Positions 2,370 through 39,108 of a stretch of DNA of 64,000 nucleotides are shown one piece after another. The notes beneath the pieces are model-generated. The model ran no database searches and was not told the origin of the DNA. It saw nothing but the letters and a program-made list of their open reading frames with translations. Where the stretch lies: sequence record OR539220.1, one strand, 5' to 3'. The stretch comes from Escherichia phage vB-Eco-KMB40. A program made the position numbers and the translations under genes. The stretch's first letter is position 1, and every line of letters begins with the position of its first letter.

Positions 2370-3571
2370 TATTTTGTAATAATGTCAAACTGTTCTTTAA
2401 AGCAGAAGCTTGAATCTTGATGCTGATACAAAAATTCATAAGCTTTTTCGCGTTCGCGGTCATAAAGAGTTCGGTCAGATGACAGTTCTTTAATACGTTC
2501 AAATGTTGATTCCATGTCATTTTCATCAAACCAAATGATACCGCTATCATGCGAGGTCAAAGGAGTATTATCAACACGGAATTTTAAATTTTCGCCAGTA
2601 GATTTCCAAAATACCGGAATTGTTCCACATGCACCAAGCTCGAGATGAGTATATTCTAAAGAACGTTGTAGATATTTTTTATCCAACTTACTCAACTGAT
2701 AACCAAAACCGGATTTACTCATACGTTCAAGCATTTCGCTATTTACATAACGGTCAAGAATTTGCGTTGGCAAATTAGGAGCAATTTTAATTTGGTCTAC
2801 TTGATGAAGACGATAATACTCGTATGGAATTCCTTTTTCTTTAATAGGAATGAACGCTGGAGAACGTTCCAGACCTTCCATAATAGTACTTAGTCCTGCA
2901 GGTTTAAGATGTTTTTCATGAAAATCAAACATCTGATAAAAACCTTTCCATGTGGTCGTACGACCAATCCAACGGTTGATATTCATGTTAATTTCAGAAA
3001 CATCTTTCCAGTAGGTTGACCGAACCTTCGCAATATCCATAGGAGGCTGAAAGTTATATACTGTCGGTGCTTCTTCAATATCATCAAACAGAGAAACTGT
3101 TTCAGGATACCATTCTTTCATCAGAACTTTATTAAAATCACCATTATCAGAATGGCTAAAAATAACATCAGCTCGACGAACAGTTTCTTCTAATCCCAAA
3201 TTTCGACGCAAAGAAAGAGAAGAATGGTCATGTTGATAAACTACAACACGAACAGAAGGTTTAATGTTATCAATAATTTTTTTATAGTTATTAATAGTGT
3301 CTTCTTCAACCGAAGTAGCAGGAACTGAATTGATAATTAGAATATCACAATCATTTACCAGCTTAAGTGTTTTATCATATTCTTTTGCCAATAAAACCGG
3401 AATTGAAAATGATTTATAATCATGCGCGCAATTACGAGTAAATGATTTATCTTTAGCATAAACCAAAGTTACTTCATGACCATTCTTAATAAACCAATCA
3501 CGTTGCTCAAGAGAAAATTTAGTTACACCACAACCTTCAAGACCTCGAGCCATAAAAATACATACTTTCAT
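2369..3571 (-). CDS. a-gt: DNA alpha-glucosyltransferase (glucosylation of hydroxymethyl-cytosine DNA)
   Basis: 400 aa; N-terminus MKVCIFMARGLEGCGVTKFSLEQ and length match T4 alpha-gt as recalled; position between 47 and 55. Confidence 0.85.
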   Translation of the reverse strand: MKVCIFMARGLEGCGVTKFSLEQRDWFIKNGHEVTLVYAKDKSFTRNCAHDYKSFSIPVLLAKEYDKTLKLVNDCDILIINSVPATSVEEDTINNYKKIIDNIKPSVRVVVYQHDHSSLSLRRNLGLEETVRRADVIFSHSDNGDFNKVLMKEWYPETVSLFDDIEEAPTVYNFQPPMDIAKVRSTYWKDVSEINMNINRWIGRTTTWKGFYQMFDFHEKHLKPAGLSTIMEGLERSPAFIPIKEKGIPYEYYRLHQVDQIKIAPNLPTQILDRYVNSEMLERMSKSGFGYQLSKLDKKYLQRSLEYTHLELGACGTIPVFWKSTGENLKFRVDNTPLTSHDSGIIWFDENDMESTFERIKELSSDRTLYDREREKAYEFLYQHQDSSFCFKEQFDIITK

Positions 3572-17056: not shown

Positions 17057-17584
17057 TTATGCGAGTACCGTCTTTAACCGTTCTTCAAACTTCCGAAGAG
17101 TATTTTGGCGTTCAGCTCTTTGCTTTTTGTAAGTTTCAATACGCTCTGAAATGAGAGTGTATCGTTCATTTACTGATTCTTTCATAAAATCAGGAATTTC
17201 ACGAGAAGCTTTAATCTCATCAAATTTATCAATAACAGCTTGCTCTTCAGCAATTAAGTTATCATACATTAAAATATCTTTCTTGATGAACTCAATATCT
17301 TCTTGAGTTACACGAGATAATTTAGATGCTTTATCCTTTTTGTACTGTTCGTTAGTATCACGAGACCAGTGTAATGTACGATTTTTATTCGTATTTTTGT
17401 AAATTTCTACAATACCAATTTCATCAATAATAACGATCCAATTCCAACGGGATTTGTAAATTTGTCCTCCATCAACAGTGATTTCACCTCCGATTGAGAT
17501 GTCATTAAAGAACTTGCTTTGTGCTTCAGATTTAAATTTACCATCGTTGTAATTTACCAGGTTGAAAATATCTTTAGCATTCAT
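17057..17584 (-). CDS. hypothetical protein (175 aa from ATG at 17584)
   Basis: Track ORF N-terminal extension is translation of the promoter; GGAGGAACAC SD before MNAKDIF. Confidence 0.5.
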   Translation of the reverse strand: MNAKDIFNLVNYNDGKFKSEAQSKFFNDISIGGEITVDGGQIYKSRWNWIVIIDEIGIVEIYKNTNKNRTLHWSRDTNEQYKKDKASKLSRVTQEDIEFIKKDILMYDNLIAEEQAVIDKFDEIKASREIPDFMKESVNERYTLISERIETYKKQRAERQNTLRKFEERLKTVLA

Positions 17585-17611
17585 TTTGTGTTCCTCCGTA
17601 GTTGATAGTTG

Positions 17612-17641
17612 TATAGTACCACAGAGGAACAGTCTTGTAAA
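17612..17641 (-). promoter_or_regulatory. T4-type early promoter (-35 GTTTACA, -10 TACTAT)
   Basis: Repeat element gttgatagttgtatagtac (plus strand) shared with promoters at 19052, 22868 and 34516. Confidence 0.6.
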
Positions 17642-17644
17642 CAA

Positions 17645-19017: not shown

Positions 19018-19051
19018 TTTATTCTCCAAATCCGTATCAGTTGATAGTTGT

Positions 19052-19081
19052 ATAGTACCATAAAGCTTTATGCTTGTAAAC
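19052..19081 (-). promoter_or_regulatory. T4-type early promoter (-35 GTTTACA, -10 TACTAT)
   Basis: Conserved early-promoter repeat upstream of ATPase gene. Confidence 0.6.
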
Positions 19082-19101
19082 CGTTTTGTGAAAAATTTTT
19101 G

Positions 19102-19128
19102 AAATAAAAAGGGAGCCCGAAGGCTCCC
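19102..19128 (-). terminator. intrinsic terminator (GGGAGCC-TTCG-GGCTCCC plus TTTTTATTT on minus strand)
   Basis: Perfect 7-bp GC stem with tetraloop directly after nucleotidyltransferase stop. Confidence 0.6.
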
Positions 19129-29230: not shown

Positions 29231-29704
29231 TTATTTGAACGATTTAACGTACTGAATAGAACCTTTACTATTTACAAAGGCAATTTTACCATTTTTATTA
29301 TACATGGTAGCAGTACGTTGATAACCATAAGTTTGTTTACCAGATTGATAACCAACTAATGCGAAATTATCTTCGCCCATTTTATTCTGTTTAGCGCGAA
29401 TGCGTTCATGACCATGTGCCATAAGAACCTTAGCATCACCGGTTGCAATGGATCGACGAGTTTTTTCATCTTCAACTGTATTAACAAAGTCGTCAAATGA
29501 ATCAAATTTAGCATGTGATTTATTATACAGTTTTCCATCTACTGCATAATTATATCCCTGTACATCCATCTCAACTTCTGTACCATCATCCAATACAGCA
29601 GTGATTTTTTGACCTTTTTTAAATTTCAAAAGATCAGTAAAAGATTCAGCAATAATTTGAGAATTAATAGCTGCTTCAGTGATAAATTCTTGATATGTTT
29701 TCAT
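29231..29704 (-). CDS. internal-protein-like head protein with capsid-targeting N-terminus (157 aa)
   Basis: N-terminus MKTYQEFITE matches T4 IP capsid-targeting consensus MKTYQEFIAE; basic mature part. Confidence 0.6.
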   Translation of the reverse strand: MKTYQEFITEAAINSQIIAESFTDLLKFKKGQKITAVLDDGTEVEMDVQGYNYAVDGKLYNKSHAKFDSFDDFVNTVEDEKTRRSIATGDAKVLMAHGHERIRAKQNKMGEDNFALVGYQSGKQTYGYQRTATMYNKNGKIAFVNSKGSIQYVKSFK

Positions 29705-34208: not shown

Positions 34209-34484
34209 TTATTTCATATTATTGAAATATTCTTCTGCGATTTCATCGTTATCATGGTAAACTTTAGAAGACAGTTTAACATAACCTTCAGCAGTGAACA
34301 TGTTAATCACAACCTTTACAGTATACCACTGACCATCTTCATTACCCATTACTGCGTAAGTTTCAAACATCGGATGATCAGGACCGATAACTTTAATATC
34401 ATTCACTGTACGACCAAAATCTTCTGAAACACATTTCATAAAGAAGTTGAACAGTTCGCCGTAATTATCCATTTCATTCTCCAA
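34209..34484 (-). CDS. hypothetical small acidic protein (91 aa)
   Basis: ORF track; own early promoter. Confidence 0.45.
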   Translation of the reverse strand: MENEMDNYGELFNFFMKCVSEDFGRTVNDIKVIGPDHPMFETYAVMGNEDGQWYTVKVVINMFTAEGYVKLSSKVYHDNDEIAEEYFNNMK

Positions 34485-34515
34485 GTTGTTTTCTGTATCA
34501 GTAGTTGATAGTTGT

Positions 34516-34545
34516 ATAGTACCATAGAAGAACAGGGATGTAAAC
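34516..34545 (-). promoter_or_regulatory. T4-type early promoter (-35 GTTTACA, -10 TACTAT)
   Basis: Conserved early-promoter repeat. Confidence 0.6.
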
Positions 34546-34677
34546 AGTTTTGTGAAAAATTTTTTAAAAAGTTTTGGGGAATTTTAGGGCAAGGAGGGGA
34601 AATCAAAGGATAGGATAATATATTATAAAGGGTAGAAACTAAATGATGCCTAGAGAGGCCTGGAAAGGCCTAGATAC

Positions 34678-34707
34678 CAAAAAGCCCCAACCTTTTGGTC
34701 GGGACTA
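34678..34707 (-). terminator. intrinsic terminator (GTCCCGACC-AAAA-GGTTGGGGC plus TTTTT on minus strand)
   Basis: 9-bp stem plus T-run; near-identical copy at 35238..35265. Confidence 0.6.
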
Positions 34708-34713
34708 AGAATG

Positions 34714-35187
34714 TTATTTGATTTGTTTAGCAGACCAAATGCGGTCTTTAATAATTTTTTGGATGTCTTCAACATACTCAAGAGAATGAGCATGTGGGTT
34801 ATCTTTAAAGCTATGAGCACGAGCTAGCTTTTGGCCTTCAGTTTTGATTACTAAAAGCTCTTTAAGGATAGCTTCATATTTGGAGATAATTCCTTTAACG
34901 ATATTTTTTTCTTGTGCGACTTTAGGATCTGCTTTAGGAGCAGGTTTACCCGAAGCCTTTGCAAAAGCAGCGCCAGTAGCAACTAAACTTTTCCAGGCCA
35001 TACTAACTGCATTTCCCGTAAATCCTTCCGCTTTCATGTCGCGTGCGAACTGGAATCGTGATTCATCAGAAGCATCTTTGTAAGAATATTTACCCGCTGC
35101 AATGGCTGCTTTTGCGACAGCTTGAATTTCGGTGCTAGATGCTTCATTTAACACCGCTTCATTTAAAAATTGAGTATATGATTTCAT
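34714..35187 (-). CDS. internal-protein-like head protein with variant capsid-targeting N-terminus (157 aa)
   Basis: N-terminus MKSYTQFLNEA resembles IP capsid-targeting sequence; Ala/Lys-rich mature region. Confidence 0.5.
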   Translation of the reverse strand: MKSYTQFLNEAVLNEASSTEIQAVAKAAIAAGKYSYKDASDESRFQFARDMKAEGFTGNAVSMAWKSLVATGAAFAKASGKPAPKADPKVAQEKNIVKGIISKYEAILKELLVIKTEGQKLARAHSFKDNPHAHSLEYVEDIQKIIKDRIWSAKQIK

Positions 35188-35237
35188 CTTATTTCCTGTT
35201 TTAATTCGTGGTTTTAATATACTACTATATTTATACC

Positions 35238-35265
35238 AAAAAGCCCCAACCTTTCGGTCGGGGCT
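35238..35265 (-). terminator. intrinsic terminator (GCCCCGACC-GAAA-GGTTGGGGC plus TTTTT on minus strand)
   Basis: 9-bp GC stem with GAAA tetraloop plus T-run; ends the tRNA/stable-RNA transcription unit. Confidence 0.65.
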
Positions 35266-35573
35266 AAGCCTTGCGGCAACCTTGTCGGGGTTCCACCTGC
35301 TAAGGCAAGTGTTTGTACGAAACGCCGGGATTCGAACCCGGTTATTAAGTAGTTGACGCTACTCAATATTTTTAAAAGGCCATATCTCGACCCATATCCG
35401 AACGTTCCGTCAAAAACGCTACTCGGCTTACGGCAAAGATATTTCCTCGAATCGATAATTCGGTGCGCCGTTTCTGCTGTGATAGTAAAGAGCCAGAACA
35501 CAGTAAAACTGTGGGAGGAAACTATACTCCAGGGAACATCAGTCCGACGACTTACCGGTAGCGACCCGGTTTC
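35266..35573 (-). ncRNA. GC-rich structured non-coding region; candidate small stable RNAs (T4 rnaC/rnaD-like)
   Basis: No convincing ORF; minus strand has canonical T-arm CCGGG-TTCGAAT-CCCGG and several hairpins; lies 3' of tRNA-Arg. Confidence 0.35.
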
Positions 35574-35924
35574 TTAGTATTCTTTTAAAGCATCAACCTG
35601 TTCACGACGTTTACGCCATAAATCAATTACTTCATACGCAGATTCAGCATTTCGAATTGGACGGCATTTATATAAAGACTTGTGATTTTGATATTGTGTA
35701 GATAACGGAATTTTATCTAAAAGGTCTTTACGTTCAAAATATTCGTAACCATCTAAACCAAATGAACGATTTTTGAGAAATTGCCAATGACCATATTCGT
35801 TTTCGACATAAACATAATCTGCATGCTGATAAAGCAAATTAATTAAGCGTTCAGAAATAACAGTGTCATTGTGATTAAAATAGAATGTTAAATCATGAAC
35901 TACTAAATAAACATTACCTTTCAT
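35574..35924 (-). CDS. hypothetical protein (116 aa) just 3' of tRNA-Arg
   Basis: ORF track; no motif. Confidence 0.4.
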   Translation of the reverse strand: MKGNVYLVVHDLTFYFNHNDTVISERLINLLYQHADYVYVENEYGHWQFLKNRSFGLDGYEYFERKDLLDKIPLSTQYQNHKSLYKCRPIRNAESAYEVIDLWRKRREQVDALKEY

Positions 35925-35942: not shown

Positions 35943-36018
35943 TGGTCGAGGCAGTAGGGATCGAACCTACGACCCAGGACTTAGAAGGTCCTTGCTCTTC
36001 CTTCTGAGCTATGCCCCG
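35943..36018 (-). tRNA. tRNA-Arg (anticodon UCU)
   Basis: Manual fold: 7-bp acceptor, D arm GCTC/GAGC, anticodon loop CTTCTAA, T loop TTCGATC, CCA encoded. Confidence 0.85.
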
Positions 36019-36022
36019 TAAT

Positions 36023-36098
36023 TGGGGTGACCGATGGGAGTCGAACCCATGACTACGAGAATCACAATCTCGAGTTCTACCAACTGAACTACGGCCAC
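36023..36098 (-). tRNA. tRNA-His (anticodon GUG)
   Basis: Manual fold: canonical arms, anticodon loop TTGTGAT, discriminator C, CCA encoded. Confidence 0.8.
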
Positions 36099-36212
36099 AT
36101 TAATACCTACTCCAACAATCAAGATGTCTTCACACGAAATTAAGAGAAGAGTGATCAGTTCAACCCCTATAATCGCGTCAAGTAGATATTAATGTGACAG
36201 TTGTCACAAATT

Positions 36213-36287
36213 TGGCGGACGTGATAGGATTCGAACCTATAACCAATCGCTTAACAGGCGATCGCTCTGCCATTGAGCTACACATCC
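36213..36287 (-). tRNA. tRNA-Asn (anticodon GUU)
   Basis: Manual fold: D arm GCTC/GAGC, anticodon loop CTGTTAA, T loop TTCGAAT, CCA encoded. Confidence 0.8.
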
Positions 36288-36291
36288 AAAT

Positions 36292-36378
36292 TGGTGGGGA
36301 GTGATGGAGTCGAACCACCCGAGTCGCAATGACAATGAATTTACAGTCCACACCGCTACCTCTACGGGATAACTCCCC
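36292..36378 (-). tRNA. probable tRNA-Tyr (anticodon GUA), long variable arm
   Basis: Canonical acceptor, anticodon arm (loop CTGTAAA) and T arm; 15-nt variable arm; D arm non-canonical (4 nt between acceptor and D stem). Confidence 0.6.
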
Positions 36379-36390
36379 TAATTCATAATT

Positions 36391-36465
36391 TGGTGGCCCT
36401 GGGTGGAATTGAACCACCATCTGGCGATTATGAGTCGCTTGCTTGAACCTTCCAGCTACAGGGCC
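36391..36465 (-). tRNA. tRNA with CAU anticodon (Met, or Ile if C34 is modified as in T4 tRNA-Ile)
   Basis: Manual fold: anticodon loop CTCATAA, T stem GGTGG/CCACC, CCA encoded. Confidence 0.75.
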
Positions 36466-36466
36466 T

Positions 36467-36542
36467 TGGTGCTGATTGACGGAATCGAACCGCCGACATC
36501 CTCATTACAAGTGAGGTGCTCTACCTACTGAGCTAAATCAGC
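36467..36542 (-). tRNA. tRNA-Thr (anticodon UGU)
   Basis: Manual fold: canonical cloverleaf, anticodon loop CTTGTAA, CCA encoded. Confidence 0.85.
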
Positions 36543-36547
36543 AAAAC

Positions 36548-36637
36548 TGGCGGAGGCGATAGGATTTGAACCTATGAGTCGCCGGAGCGACTGCCGGTTT
36601 TCAAGACCGGTGCATTAAACCACTCTGCCACGCCTCC
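36548..36637 (-). tRNA. tRNA-Ser (anticodon UGA), long variable arm
   Basis: Manual fold: anticodon stem CCGGT/ACCGG, loop CTTGAAA, 18-nt variable arm, CCA encoded. Confidence 0.85.
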
Positions 36638-36639
36638 AG

Positions 36640-36713
36640 TCTCCGCGGCAGGATTTGAACCTACGACATTCTGCTCCCAAAGCAGACGCTCTACCAAACT
36701 GAGCTACACGGAG
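36640..36713 (-). tRNA. tRNA-Pro (anticodon UGG)
   Basis: Manual fold: anticodon loop TTTGGGA, T loop TTCAAAT; CCA not encoded. Confidence 0.85.
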
Positions 36714-36723
36714 TAAATTAAAT

Positions 36724-36797
<74 letters not shown>

Positions 36798-36802
36798 AAA
36801 TT

Positions 36803-36889
36803 TGGTGCGAGAAGTGGGACTCGAACCCACAAGGAAATCATTCCGCAGCATTTTAAGTGCTGTGCCTTTACCAATTTGACCATTCTCGC
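36803..36889 (-). tRNA. tRNA-Leu (anticodon UAA), long variable arm
   Basis: Sequence GCGAGAATGGTCAAATTGGTAAAGGCACAGCACTTAAAATGCTGCGG...GTGGGTTCGAGTCCCACTTCTCGCACCA matches T4 tRNA-Leu as recalled. Confidence 0.9.
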
Positions 36890-36890
36890 G

Positions 36891-36963
36891 CTGGGAATAA
36901 AGGACTCGAACCTTTGCATCTAGCAGTCAAAGTGCTATGCCTTACCAACTTGGCTAATTCCCA
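36891..36963 (-). tRNA. tRNA-Gln (anticodon UUG)
   Basis: Manual fold: anticodon loop CTTTGAC, T arm AAAGG-TTCGAGT-CCTTT; CCA not encoded; first tRNA of the cluster. Confidence 0.85.
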
Positions 36964-38519: not shown

Positions 38520-38747
38520 TTACGAAAAAATTGATTTATTTTCTGCTGCCCATTTTTCAATAACTGCAGCAGGACCAGTGACAACAATTTTATCACCGTA
38601 ATCTTCTGCGGCGAGCTGACCATACATATTCAATGAACGACCGAGAACTTCCCAAGGCATTTCACCCATTTTATCTTTCTCGCCAGTGTAAATAAACTCA
38701 ACTTTTACATCAGCAGTTTCAGCAATAAATTCTTGATAAGTTTTCAT
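38520..38747 (-). CDS. small internal-protein-like head protein with capsid-targeting N-terminus (75 aa)
   Basis: N-terminus MKTYQEFIAE identical to the T4 IP capsid-targeting consensus; own promoter. Confidence 0.55.
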   Translation of the reverse strand: MKTYQEFIAETADVKVEFIYTGEKDKMGEMPWEVLGRSLNMYGQLAAEDYGDKIVVTGPAAVIEKWAAENKSIFS

Positions 38748-38775
38748 TTTATTCTCCTCAGTAGTTGATAGGGTA

Positions 38776-38805
38776 ATAGTATCACAACTAAAACCCTATG
38801 TAAAC
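38776..38805 (-). promoter_or_regulatory. T4-type early promoter with 7-bp inverted repeat (ATAGGGT/ACCCTAT) spanning the -10 and spacer
   Basis: Minus strand TTTTTCACAAAGTTGTTTACA-N17-TACTAT. Confidence 0.6.
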
Positions 38806-38823
38806 AACTTTGTGAAAAATTTA

Positions 38824-39108
38824 TTACAAAAGATTTTTAGCAATAATTTTAAGCTGAGCTACTGAAATATGCTTGGCTTTAAACAAAGCAGTTTCTTCAG
38901 CAGGGGAGATAACGATTGTAGCACCATCTTTCTTAGCGGACCATCCATCACCCAGGTAAACAGTACCTTTGACTTCTTCGCCATCAACCAGGCTAATCAT
39001 CGGTTTACCTTCACGTCCTTTGTTTGCTTTAATAACTTCAGAAGTAAGGGTCGCTTCAGTCAAAGTAGAAGCGTTAGTGGTTGAAGTGAATTCTTGATAA
39101 GTTTTCAT
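38824..39108 (-). CDS. ipI: internal protein I-like head protein (94 aa)
   Basis: N-terminus MKTYQEF; 94 aa versus 95 aa T4 IPI; immediately 3' of 57B as in T4; mature part divergent. Confidence 0.6.
   Translation of the reverse strand: MKTYQEFTSTTNASTLTEATLTSEVIKANKGREGKPMISLVDGEEVKGTVYLGDGWSAKKDGATIVISPAEETALFKAKHISVAQLKIIAKNLL

Follow-up and report, generated by a model that had tools for sequence, protein, structure and literature searches.

Introduction

What is encoded between the stable-RNA gene rnaC and gene e.8 of Escherichia phage vB-Eco-KMB40, and why is it enclosed by two almost identical terminators? The question is raised by a stretch of 64,000 nucleotides from this phage (sequence record OR539220.1), hereafter the window, which at positions 34,678 to 35,265 carries one open reading frame (ORF), designated here gene A, with a terminator on either side. 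A preliminary description made from the letters alone had proposed that gene A encodes a capsid-targeted protein and that the interval is a self-contained cassette inserted beside the stable RNAs. The answer preferred here, with a probability of about 0.7, is that the interval forms a late transcription unit with a single gene, whose product is an internal protein (Ip) of the T4 type that had so far escaped recognition. The rnaC-e.8 site is most likely a third polymorphic internal-protein locus, and gene A most likely represents a new family of internal, injected proteins in a terminator-bounded cassette, being a new example of a kind already known and not a new kind.

Two Ip loci have been known so far, ipII/ipIII upstream of gene e and ipI between 57B and trna.4. 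T-even internal proteins reportedly share a conserved leader, and repeated promoter and stem-loop sequences are said to surround the ip genes, a picture drawn at least in part from the work of Repoila et al. in 1994. The window itself contains two recognised Ip genes, both on the minus strand. The product of the first (29231-29704) is 100% identical to IpIV of phage PST, with the start MKTYQEFITEA and a second IAE/S motif at residues 18-20 (the slash marks the cleavage point here and below), while the product of the second (38520-38747) is an acidic protein of 75 aa (pI 4.6), 82% identical to IpVI of PST and similar to Ip6 of T6. As to function, Ip1 blocks GmrSD-CT596, Ip2 blocks GmrSD/BrxU-ECOR21, and Ip3 blocks GmrSD-ECOR17 (PMC12373910); Bas37_0260, encoded at the ipI locus of phage Bas37, blocks McrBC (bioRxiv 10.1101/2025.11.20.689424).

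The Predicted Capsid-Targeting Leader of Gene A

The ORF and its suggestive start were confirmed on the minus strand, where gene A encodes a precursor of 17.2 kDa. In amber-suppression mutagenesis of the IPIII leader MKTYQEFIAE, as far as it is summarised in a later review, targeting depended mainly on residues 4 and 7 and processing on residues 8 and 10 (PMC9026906, reviewing Mullaney and Black 1996). The gene A leader MKSYTQFLNE keeps Y4 and F7 of the targeting positions and L8 and E10 of the cleavage positions; judged by its residues, it is a predicted capsid-targeting sequence (CTS) that carries both the targeting positions and the site for the prohead protease gp21. The gp21-type L-x-E site reads L8-N9-E10/A11 and is repeated as L13-N14-E15/A16, the second copy being derived from a 15-nt tandem duplication (codons 7-11 and 12-16, 12/15 identical). 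Alleles that lack this duplication read MKTYNEFLMTEA or MKSYAEFLTEQ. The mature protein is predicted to start at A11 (AVLNEASSTEIQAVAK) if the precursor is cut after E10, and at A16 (ASSTEIQAVAK) if it is cut after E15.

These positions are conserved far beyond close relatives. In the family alignment, which comprises all 13 representatives that an exhaustive profile search returned, position 4 is Y or F in every member, position 7 is F in 12 of the 13 and I in the remaining one, L8 is nearly invariant, and most members have a Glu matching E10; across the whole alignment few columns are invariant or nearly so, and M1, F7, and L8 are among them. Homologues with only 23-30% identity to gene A still begin with MLKFNEFLAEG, MINFSDFLNEGA, MKSFSSFLNEGA, or MISFNEFVDG. 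The motif M-x-x-[YF]-x-x-F-[LIV]-x-E heads three reading frames of at least 50 aa in the window, versus a mean of 0.01 in 200 codon shuffles, and the other two of these frames belong to phrog_3155 and phrog_8111, which PHROG annotates as internal virion proteins.

A Predicted Late Transcription Unit with One Gene

Immediately past the upstream terminator stands the T4-type late promoter TATAAATA, which shares its first three bases with the end of the repeat in which this terminator lies. The same octamer was independently marked as a predicted late promoter by the annotators of phage fPS-90; it is kept in Tequatrovirus and Jiaodavirus loci, Mosigvirus-type loci having either TATAAATA or AATAAATA, and it is absent at the T4 and T2 site. 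The succession of terminator, TATAAATA, ORF, and terminator is also found in the Jiaodavirus phage phiKp_22 and in eight IMG/VR contigs, and the Mosigvirus phage APCEc01 has the same layout with AATAAATA in place of TATAAATA. Given the late promoter and the flanking terminators, gene A constitutes a monocistronic late unit within an early and stable-RNA region, and from its promoter it is predicted to be expressed at the time when proheads assemble.

Among seven gene A orthologues the pairwise ratio of nonsynonymous to synonymous substitution rates (dN/dS) was 0.04-0.21, with dS reaching saturation, which indicates purifying selection. These values, together with the peptide detection in phage fD1 described below, led to rejection of the possibility that the ORF is not a gene.

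Frameshifted or truncated alleles of gene A also circulate, namely in Shigella phage SfPhi01 (P0006, 111 aa) and in P0008 (93 aa), P0014 (108 aa), and P0016 (61 aa), so gene A is evidently dispensable in some lineages. Several of these alleles share the out-of-frame tail ...KISLKELSPNMKLSLKSF, suggestive of slippage in the A-run of GAAAAAAAT at codons 93-95. Gene A is thus small, dispensable, and polymorphic among close relatives.

Virion Evidence

Protein g140 of Yersinia phage fD1 is a 98.7% identical orthologue of the gene A product, and it was marked PPAP in liquid chromatography-tandem mass spectrometry (LC-MS/MS) of purified virions (PMC8309999 Table S3). These data show that g140 is expressed and that it copurifies with particles; owing to the low specificity of the dataset they are supportive and not decisive. 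The paper on fPS-90 contains no proteomics. All in all the gene A product is probably packaged in the phage head. With the four key residues kept, their conservation in divergent homologues, the late promoter, and an orthologue found in virions, the suggestion of the preliminary description that the leader is a divergent but recognisable CTS has gained in strength.

The Mature Protein and Its Family

After removal of 15 residues a protein of 142 aa, 15.5 kDa, and pI 9.6 would remain, which contains 25 Ala and 20 Lys and so agrees with the Ala/Lys-rich mature region noted at the outset. The alignment-based AlphaFold model of the gene A protein reached a mean predicted local distance difference test (pLDDT) score of 79 (70 for the single-sequence model). 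It comprises a leader of low confidence, a small helical N-domain at residues 18-71 (pLDDT 85-91), a Lys/Pro/Ala linker of low confidence at residues 76-87, and a long helical hairpin at residues 88-154. The linker reads KASGKPAPKADPKVAQEK, and K/P/A-rich linkers are also present in distant homologues, for example AKKAAKAPPAKAAKPEAKG and AAPKPAPAKPAPTPAK; we take this linker to resemble histone H1. The family is modular, since homologues from Klebsiella phages (Jiaodavirus) and from Yersinia phage fHe-Yen9-01 share the leader, the N-domain, and the linker and differ in the C-terminal half.

Gene A was found in 511 phage records, in 469 of them at full length, while the T4-type e.8/rnaC region was found in 768 and the related gene B, described in the next section, in 165; these counts include duplicate RefSeq/GenBank entries. 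Among the records listed, the products of both genes are named hypothetical protein throughout, and PHROG 2280, to which gene A belongs, is annotated as of unknown function. Pfam and NCBIfam gave no significant match to the gene A protein, a sequence profile search against the PDB returned nothing below E = 0.09, and Foldseek found only the orthologues of the protein itself among viral models and no significant similarity in the PDB (TM about 0.24). The mature part showed no similarity to Ip1, IpIII, IpIV, IpV, IpVI, or the PHROG Ip families, Ip2 being outside this comparison. Thus, of the homology and structure searches envisaged in the preliminary description, the part concerned with relatives succeeded, in the form of phrog_2280, and the part concerned with a functional match did not. 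Literature and database searches returned no paper or entry that names gene A an internal protein, although an older paper mentioning the ORF may exist, and the supplements of PMC12373910 do not mention gene A. The gene escaped recognition because T2, T4, and T6 lack it, because its leader is divergent, and because the records listed describe it as hypothetical or of unknown function.

In an IMG/VR contig of 167,773 bp of the fHe-Yen9-01 type (L014), three CTS-like ORFs are clustered on the same strand at 200-358 (52 aa, MKTYIEFINE...), 922-1491 (189 aa, MLQYNEFLKES...), and 1501-2037 (178 aa, MLEYSEFLKEL...). The second and the third are about 10 nt apart, and the third, which is the gene A homologue, directly follows another ORF with neither the terminator nor the late promoter, so that its context differs from that of gene A.

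Twin Terminators and the Behaviour of the Cassette

The two terminators of the interval lie in the copies of a 36-nt direct repeat, each copy containing one of them; the copies are identical at 34/36 positions, their spacing is 559 bp, and in 100 shuffles of the window no match to the repeat at three or fewer mismatches was obtained. The upstream hairpin, AGCCCCGACC-GAAA-GGTTGGGGCT followed by TTTTT, has a folding energy of -20.3 kcal/mol (z = -3.5 versus shuffles), and the downstream hairpin, AGTCCCGACC-AAAA-GGTTGGGGCT followed by TTTTT, one of -16.8 kcal/mol (z = -3.6). Both consist of a 10-bp stem, a 4-nt loop, and a T-run on the same strand as gene A. The near identity of the twin terminators noticed earlier therefore holds and exceeds chance, while the 9-bp stems then assigned to them have to be corrected to 10 bp. 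The upstream terminator lies 47 nt downstream of the 3' end of rnaC, and its sequence is that of the single terminator which T4 and T2 have after rnaC.

Comparison with relatives reveals what the repeat may mean. The rnaC-e.8 spacer of T4 is 284 nt long and lacks gene A; in BLAST its positions 1-83 match the window at 35315-35233 and its positions 49-284 match 34708-34473, the overlap being exactly the repeat, at 35 nt. The site is empty, with neither A nor B, in T2, T4, T6, PST, and RB9, and the T4 and T2 sites keep exactly one terminator copy. Gene A alone is present in this window, RB51, G4507, and fD1, gene B alone in Pu-Krd-SF2, and A plus B in fPS-90, ZN18, and others. Pu-Krd-SF2 has the same left junction, ...GGTTGGGGCTTTTT followed directly by AGTTTGAATC, and then the 188-aa ORF of gene B, which starts MKTYAEFLTEAAKL; in fPS-90, ZN18, and others gene A is followed by a second terminator copy, gene B, and a third terminator, with which the common sequence GGGCTTTTTGGTATCTAGGCC resumes. 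The four configurations (none, A, B, and A plus B) share their junctions, and in T4, T2, Pu-Krd-SF2, and fPS-90, where the sequence was read, these fall in the repeat. The comparison with T2, T4, T6, and the RB phages that had been suggested for detection of cassette exchange thus gave a positive outcome.

Gene B is a full-length member of phrog_2280 (E = 2e-53), and for its C-terminal part a profile comparison with gene A gave no more than a tentative alignment (HHalign probability 56%, E = 1e-4). Genes A and B appear to be distant paralogues, a view that rests mainly on the shared PHROG.

In two Mosigvirus-type contigs (L009 2019-2573; L013, the same ORF ending at 2563) an ORF of 184 aa stands between gene A and e.8; it has a hydrophobic N-terminus (MKLLKYLSWVLLVPLDFISMVLAVILAP...), possibly that of a membrane protein, and lies behind the unrelated terminator GCCCCGTCTGGGGC. 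As the site has multiple fillings bounded by terminators, it is a small hyperplastic region.

As regards the direction of these changes, gene A directly follows the tRNA/stable-RNA cluster in Tequatrovirus, Mosigvirus, and Jiaodavirus. Because this position is shared by three genera, ancestral presence with precise loss in T2, T4, T6, PST, and RB9 is the simplest history, and recent insertion was rejected for the same reason. The cassette of the preliminary description is accordingly real, being absent from the five phages just named and replaced or accompanied by a paralogue elsewhere, while the word inserted probably had the direction wrong. Gene loss through recombination between the direct repeats seems more economical than insertion; whole-site replacement through similar flanks during mixed infection is an equally available route, and the data do not separate the two. 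An autonomous mobile element was rejected too, since the unit encodes no nuclease or recombinase.

It may also be asked whether the twin terminators provide transcriptional double insulation only, presence and absence of the genes being due to ordinary exchange through the long homologous flanks. The flanks with rnaC and e.8 are 97-99% identical between phages, so replacement of the whole site needs no repeat, and the two terminators are unrelated to each other in Jiaodavirus and in part of the Mosigvirus-type loci. This explanation is nevertheless considered doubtful, since the empty sites of T4 and T2 hold precisely a single copy of the repeat and since the junction of Pu-Krd-SF2, with gene B alone, is the one expected from recombination of the first two terminator copies of an A plus B site. 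Moreover, the 5' arm reads CCCCTTCC in both terminator copies of APCEc01 (L004 2427-2460 and 2968-3002) and CCCGACC in both copies of the window, which hints at exchange between the copies within one genome, though by a difference of 2 nt only.

Proposed Mechanism and Alternative Readings

The reading of gene A as a late-expressed internal protein can be put together as follows. Transcripts of the tRNA/rnaD/rnaC genes would stop at the upstream terminator, and the late promoter just past it would drive gene A during head building; the downstream terminator would close the unit, after which an early promoter would restart transcription into e.8. The leader MKSYTQFLNE, as a capsid-targeting sequence, would direct the protein into the prohead core, and gp21 would cleave after Glu10 and/or Glu15. 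The resulting basic (pI about 9.6), all-helical protein of 15.5 kDa would remain with the head DNA and be injected into the next host, where, by analogy with Ip1, Ip2, Ip3, and Bas37_0260, it would probably neutralise a host defence. The 36-nt terminator repeat may double as a recombination substrate, and recombination between its copies would remove or exchange the unit, hence the empty, A, B, and A plus B states among relatives. Since the anti-defence role is proposed by analogy alone, confidence in it is considerably lower than in packaging.

Several points weigh against this reading. The leader departs from the canonical sequence MKTYQEFIAE at 4/10 positions, and hidden Markov models (HMMs) of the known Ip families do not match the gene A protein, for which sequence and fold searches yield no functional clue. 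Only a late promoter is visible for gene A, while Ips of T4 are made from early times onward. Unlike the hypervariable classical Ips, phrog_2280 is conserved in sequence and position across genera, and such conservation fits a housekeeping role in the head or in DNA binding at least as well as that of an arms-race effector. The virion list of fD1 is unspecific, as it includes 113-137 of the 277 phage proteins (up to 49%), DenV, lysozyme, and NudE among them, and 672 host proteins (PMC8309999). Finally, packaging via the leader, the cleavage sites, injection, and the anti-defence role are inferred.

In a possible, tentative variant, phrog_2280 is a widely conserved family of injected head proteins with the paralogues A and B, whose third locus was lost by T2, T4, and T6. 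Since the family is kept in several Tevenvirinae genera and has the H1-like linker, its members may be carried along on the leading DNA and act against a widespread defence other than GmrSD or McrBC.

A further alternative accepts packaging and sees in the protein a structural or DNA-organising component of the head and not an anti-defence effector; it would bind and neutralise DNA or assist the prohead core, any effect after injection being incidental. The pI, the K/P/A-rich linker shared with distant homologues, the position kept in three genera, and the strong purifying selection, so different from the hypervariable Ips, are consistent with such a role, as is the C-terminal half, which is modelled as a generic helical hairpin. 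On the other hand, T2, T4, T6, PST, and RB9 manage with neither A nor B and frameshifted alleles circulate, so the protein is dispensable; the likeness of the linker to H1 is putative; and all Ips with a known function are restriction inhibitors (PMC12373910; bioRxiv 10.1101/2025.11.20.689424). This alternative is regarded as unlikely. Least probable is a non-packaged late protein acting in the infected cell only, its CTS-like start being a relic or due to chance (for example, a recombination-copied 5' end of an ip gene), because, despite the divergent leader, the missing Ip HMM match, and the clearly non-structural proteins in the fD1 proteome, the targeting and cleavage positions are the best-conserved N-terminal positions at 23-30% identity, where a relic would not persist so, paralogue B and the L014 ORFs have the same type of leader, and the late promoter would time expression to head assembly.

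Relation to Known Systems and Significance

As a candidate internal protein, gene A resembles the T-even Ips in its leader of the MK(T/S)(Y/F)xxF(I/L)xE type ending in a gp21 cleavage motif, and in belonging to a group that is small, mostly basic, and dispensable and is encoded in polymorphic units bounded by repeated regulatory sequence. It differs in the duplicated cleavage motif of its leader, in a mature part without similarity to theirs, in its location at a third locus (rnaC-e.8), which is empty in T2, T4, and T6, and in the conservation of phrog_2280 across Tequatrovirus, Mosigvirus, and Jiaodavirus, in contrast to hypervariability. With the Ip-type inhibitors of type IV restriction (Ip1-3 and Bas37_0260) it shares the predicted logic of CTS-dependent delivery and the genomic behaviour, and there too new Ips were recognised by the N-terminal signal alone; the difference is that an anti-restriction role of gene A would be a matter of pure analogy.

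The promoter-early stem-loop (PeSL) cassettes of T4-type phages (PMC2839356, Arbiol et al. 2010; PMC4122927, Comeau et al. 2014) are comparable in that repeated stem-loop terminators border variable genes and that insertions and deletions between close relatives fall at the repeats. At the present site, by contrast, a late promoter follows the upstream stem-loop, and the early promoter lies about 140 nt from the downstream one and does not form a compact composite with it. In the absence of this composite of stem-loop and early promoter, the unit is PeSL-like in behaviour and not a strict PeSL. A more distant parallel is provided by Dar and Hdf of phage P1 (PMC12810830), which are likewise packaged in the head and injected and shield the incoming DNA, while both the phage and the proteins are unrelated and the mechanism of incorporation is different.

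If the gene A product is packaged, rnaC-e.8 would be the third Ip locus and phrog_2280 the first Ip family conserved beyond one genus. The protein would then also be a candidate anti-defence factor with a bearing on the host range of many therapeutic and BASEL-type Tequatroviruses, its divergent leader would show that the CTS used in engineering of T4 protein delivery tolerates more sequence variation than known so far, and the site would be a clean natural example of terminator repeats serving as junctions of gene gain and loss.

Locus Map and Neighbouring Genes

The coordinates of the features are collected in Table 1.

Table 1: Features of the rnaC-e.8 site, its surroundings, and its gene B relatives; positions are those of the window unless another genome or contig is named.
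Feature	Position	Strand	Remarks
Gene A	34714..35187	minus	157 aa; starts MKSYTQFLNEAVLNEASS; phrog_2280; candidate internal protein
Leader/propeptide of gene A	35143-35187	minus	codons 1-15, MKSYTQFLNE + AVLNE
Shine-Dalgarno sequence AGGA	35194-35197	minus	6 nt before ATG; sequence reading
T4-type late promoter TATAAATA	35228-35235	minus	40 nt upstream of gene A ATG; sequence reading
Upstream repeat copy	repeat 35233-35268; stem 35242-35265; T-run 35237-35241	minus	intrinsic terminator of tRNA/rnaD/rnaC unit
Downstream repeat copy	repeat 34674-34709; stem 34683-34706	minus	gene A's own intrinsic terminator
Gene B	fPS-90 (L018) 2994-3557; Pu-Krd-SF2 (L017) 804-1370	minus	187-188 aa; MKTYAEFLTEAAKLPSE... 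(MKTYAEFLTEA...); CTS-bearing
Gene B in L006, L008, L012	2091/2100-2654/2663		
rnaC (species 1 stable RNA) homologue	35316-35455	minus	left border of site; 98.6% identical to T4 rnaC
rnaD homologue	35462-35574	minus	
116-aa ORF (MKGNVYLVVHDLTFYFNH...)	35574-35924	minus	between tRNA-Arg and rnaD
tRNA cluster	35943-36963	minus	eleven genes
Early-type promoter into e.8	34516-34544	minus	TTTACA-17-TACTAT with TG; right border of site
e.8 homologue	34209-34472	minus	context; 97% identical to T4 e.8

Many Tequatrovirus genomes, among them NiC89, AugustSocin, G4507, RB51, and RB68, match the interval and its surroundings at 98-99.9% identity. On the minus strand the order of transcription is tRNAs, the 116-aa ORF, rnaD, rnaC, gene A, e.8, an e.7-like gene, e.6, and e.5, so the placement of gene A between the stable RNAs and the downstream genes, as first described, is correct. 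The last gene of the tRNA/stable-RNA transcription unit is rnaC. Its homologue in the window is much closer to T4 than that of rnaD, which is only 79% identical. Rfam contained no family for the rnaC/rnaD region, nor for the gene A interval, and the automatic annotation of G4507 gives part of the rnaC region (L001 4214-4307) as 'tRNA-Lys(ttt)', where ARAGORN calls no tRNA in the window.

The tRNA genes of the window are those for Arg, His, Asn, Tyr, Met, Thr, Ser, Pro, Gly, Leu, and Gln, versus eight genes in T4, and the homing-endonuclease gene segB is absent inside the cluster. In T4 tRNA-Arg abuts rnaD without an intervening gene, while Mosigvirus loci carry a counterpart (114 aa) of the 116-aa ORF.

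On the other side, the early-promoter region of e.8 is 92% identical to the T4 rnaC-e.8 spacer. This region (34473-34575) is 74-80% similar to three others in the window, 38758-38836, 19018-19104, and 17583-17643, one of which directly precedes the Ip6-like gene, an arrangement resembling the repeated early-promoter sequences reported near variable genes.

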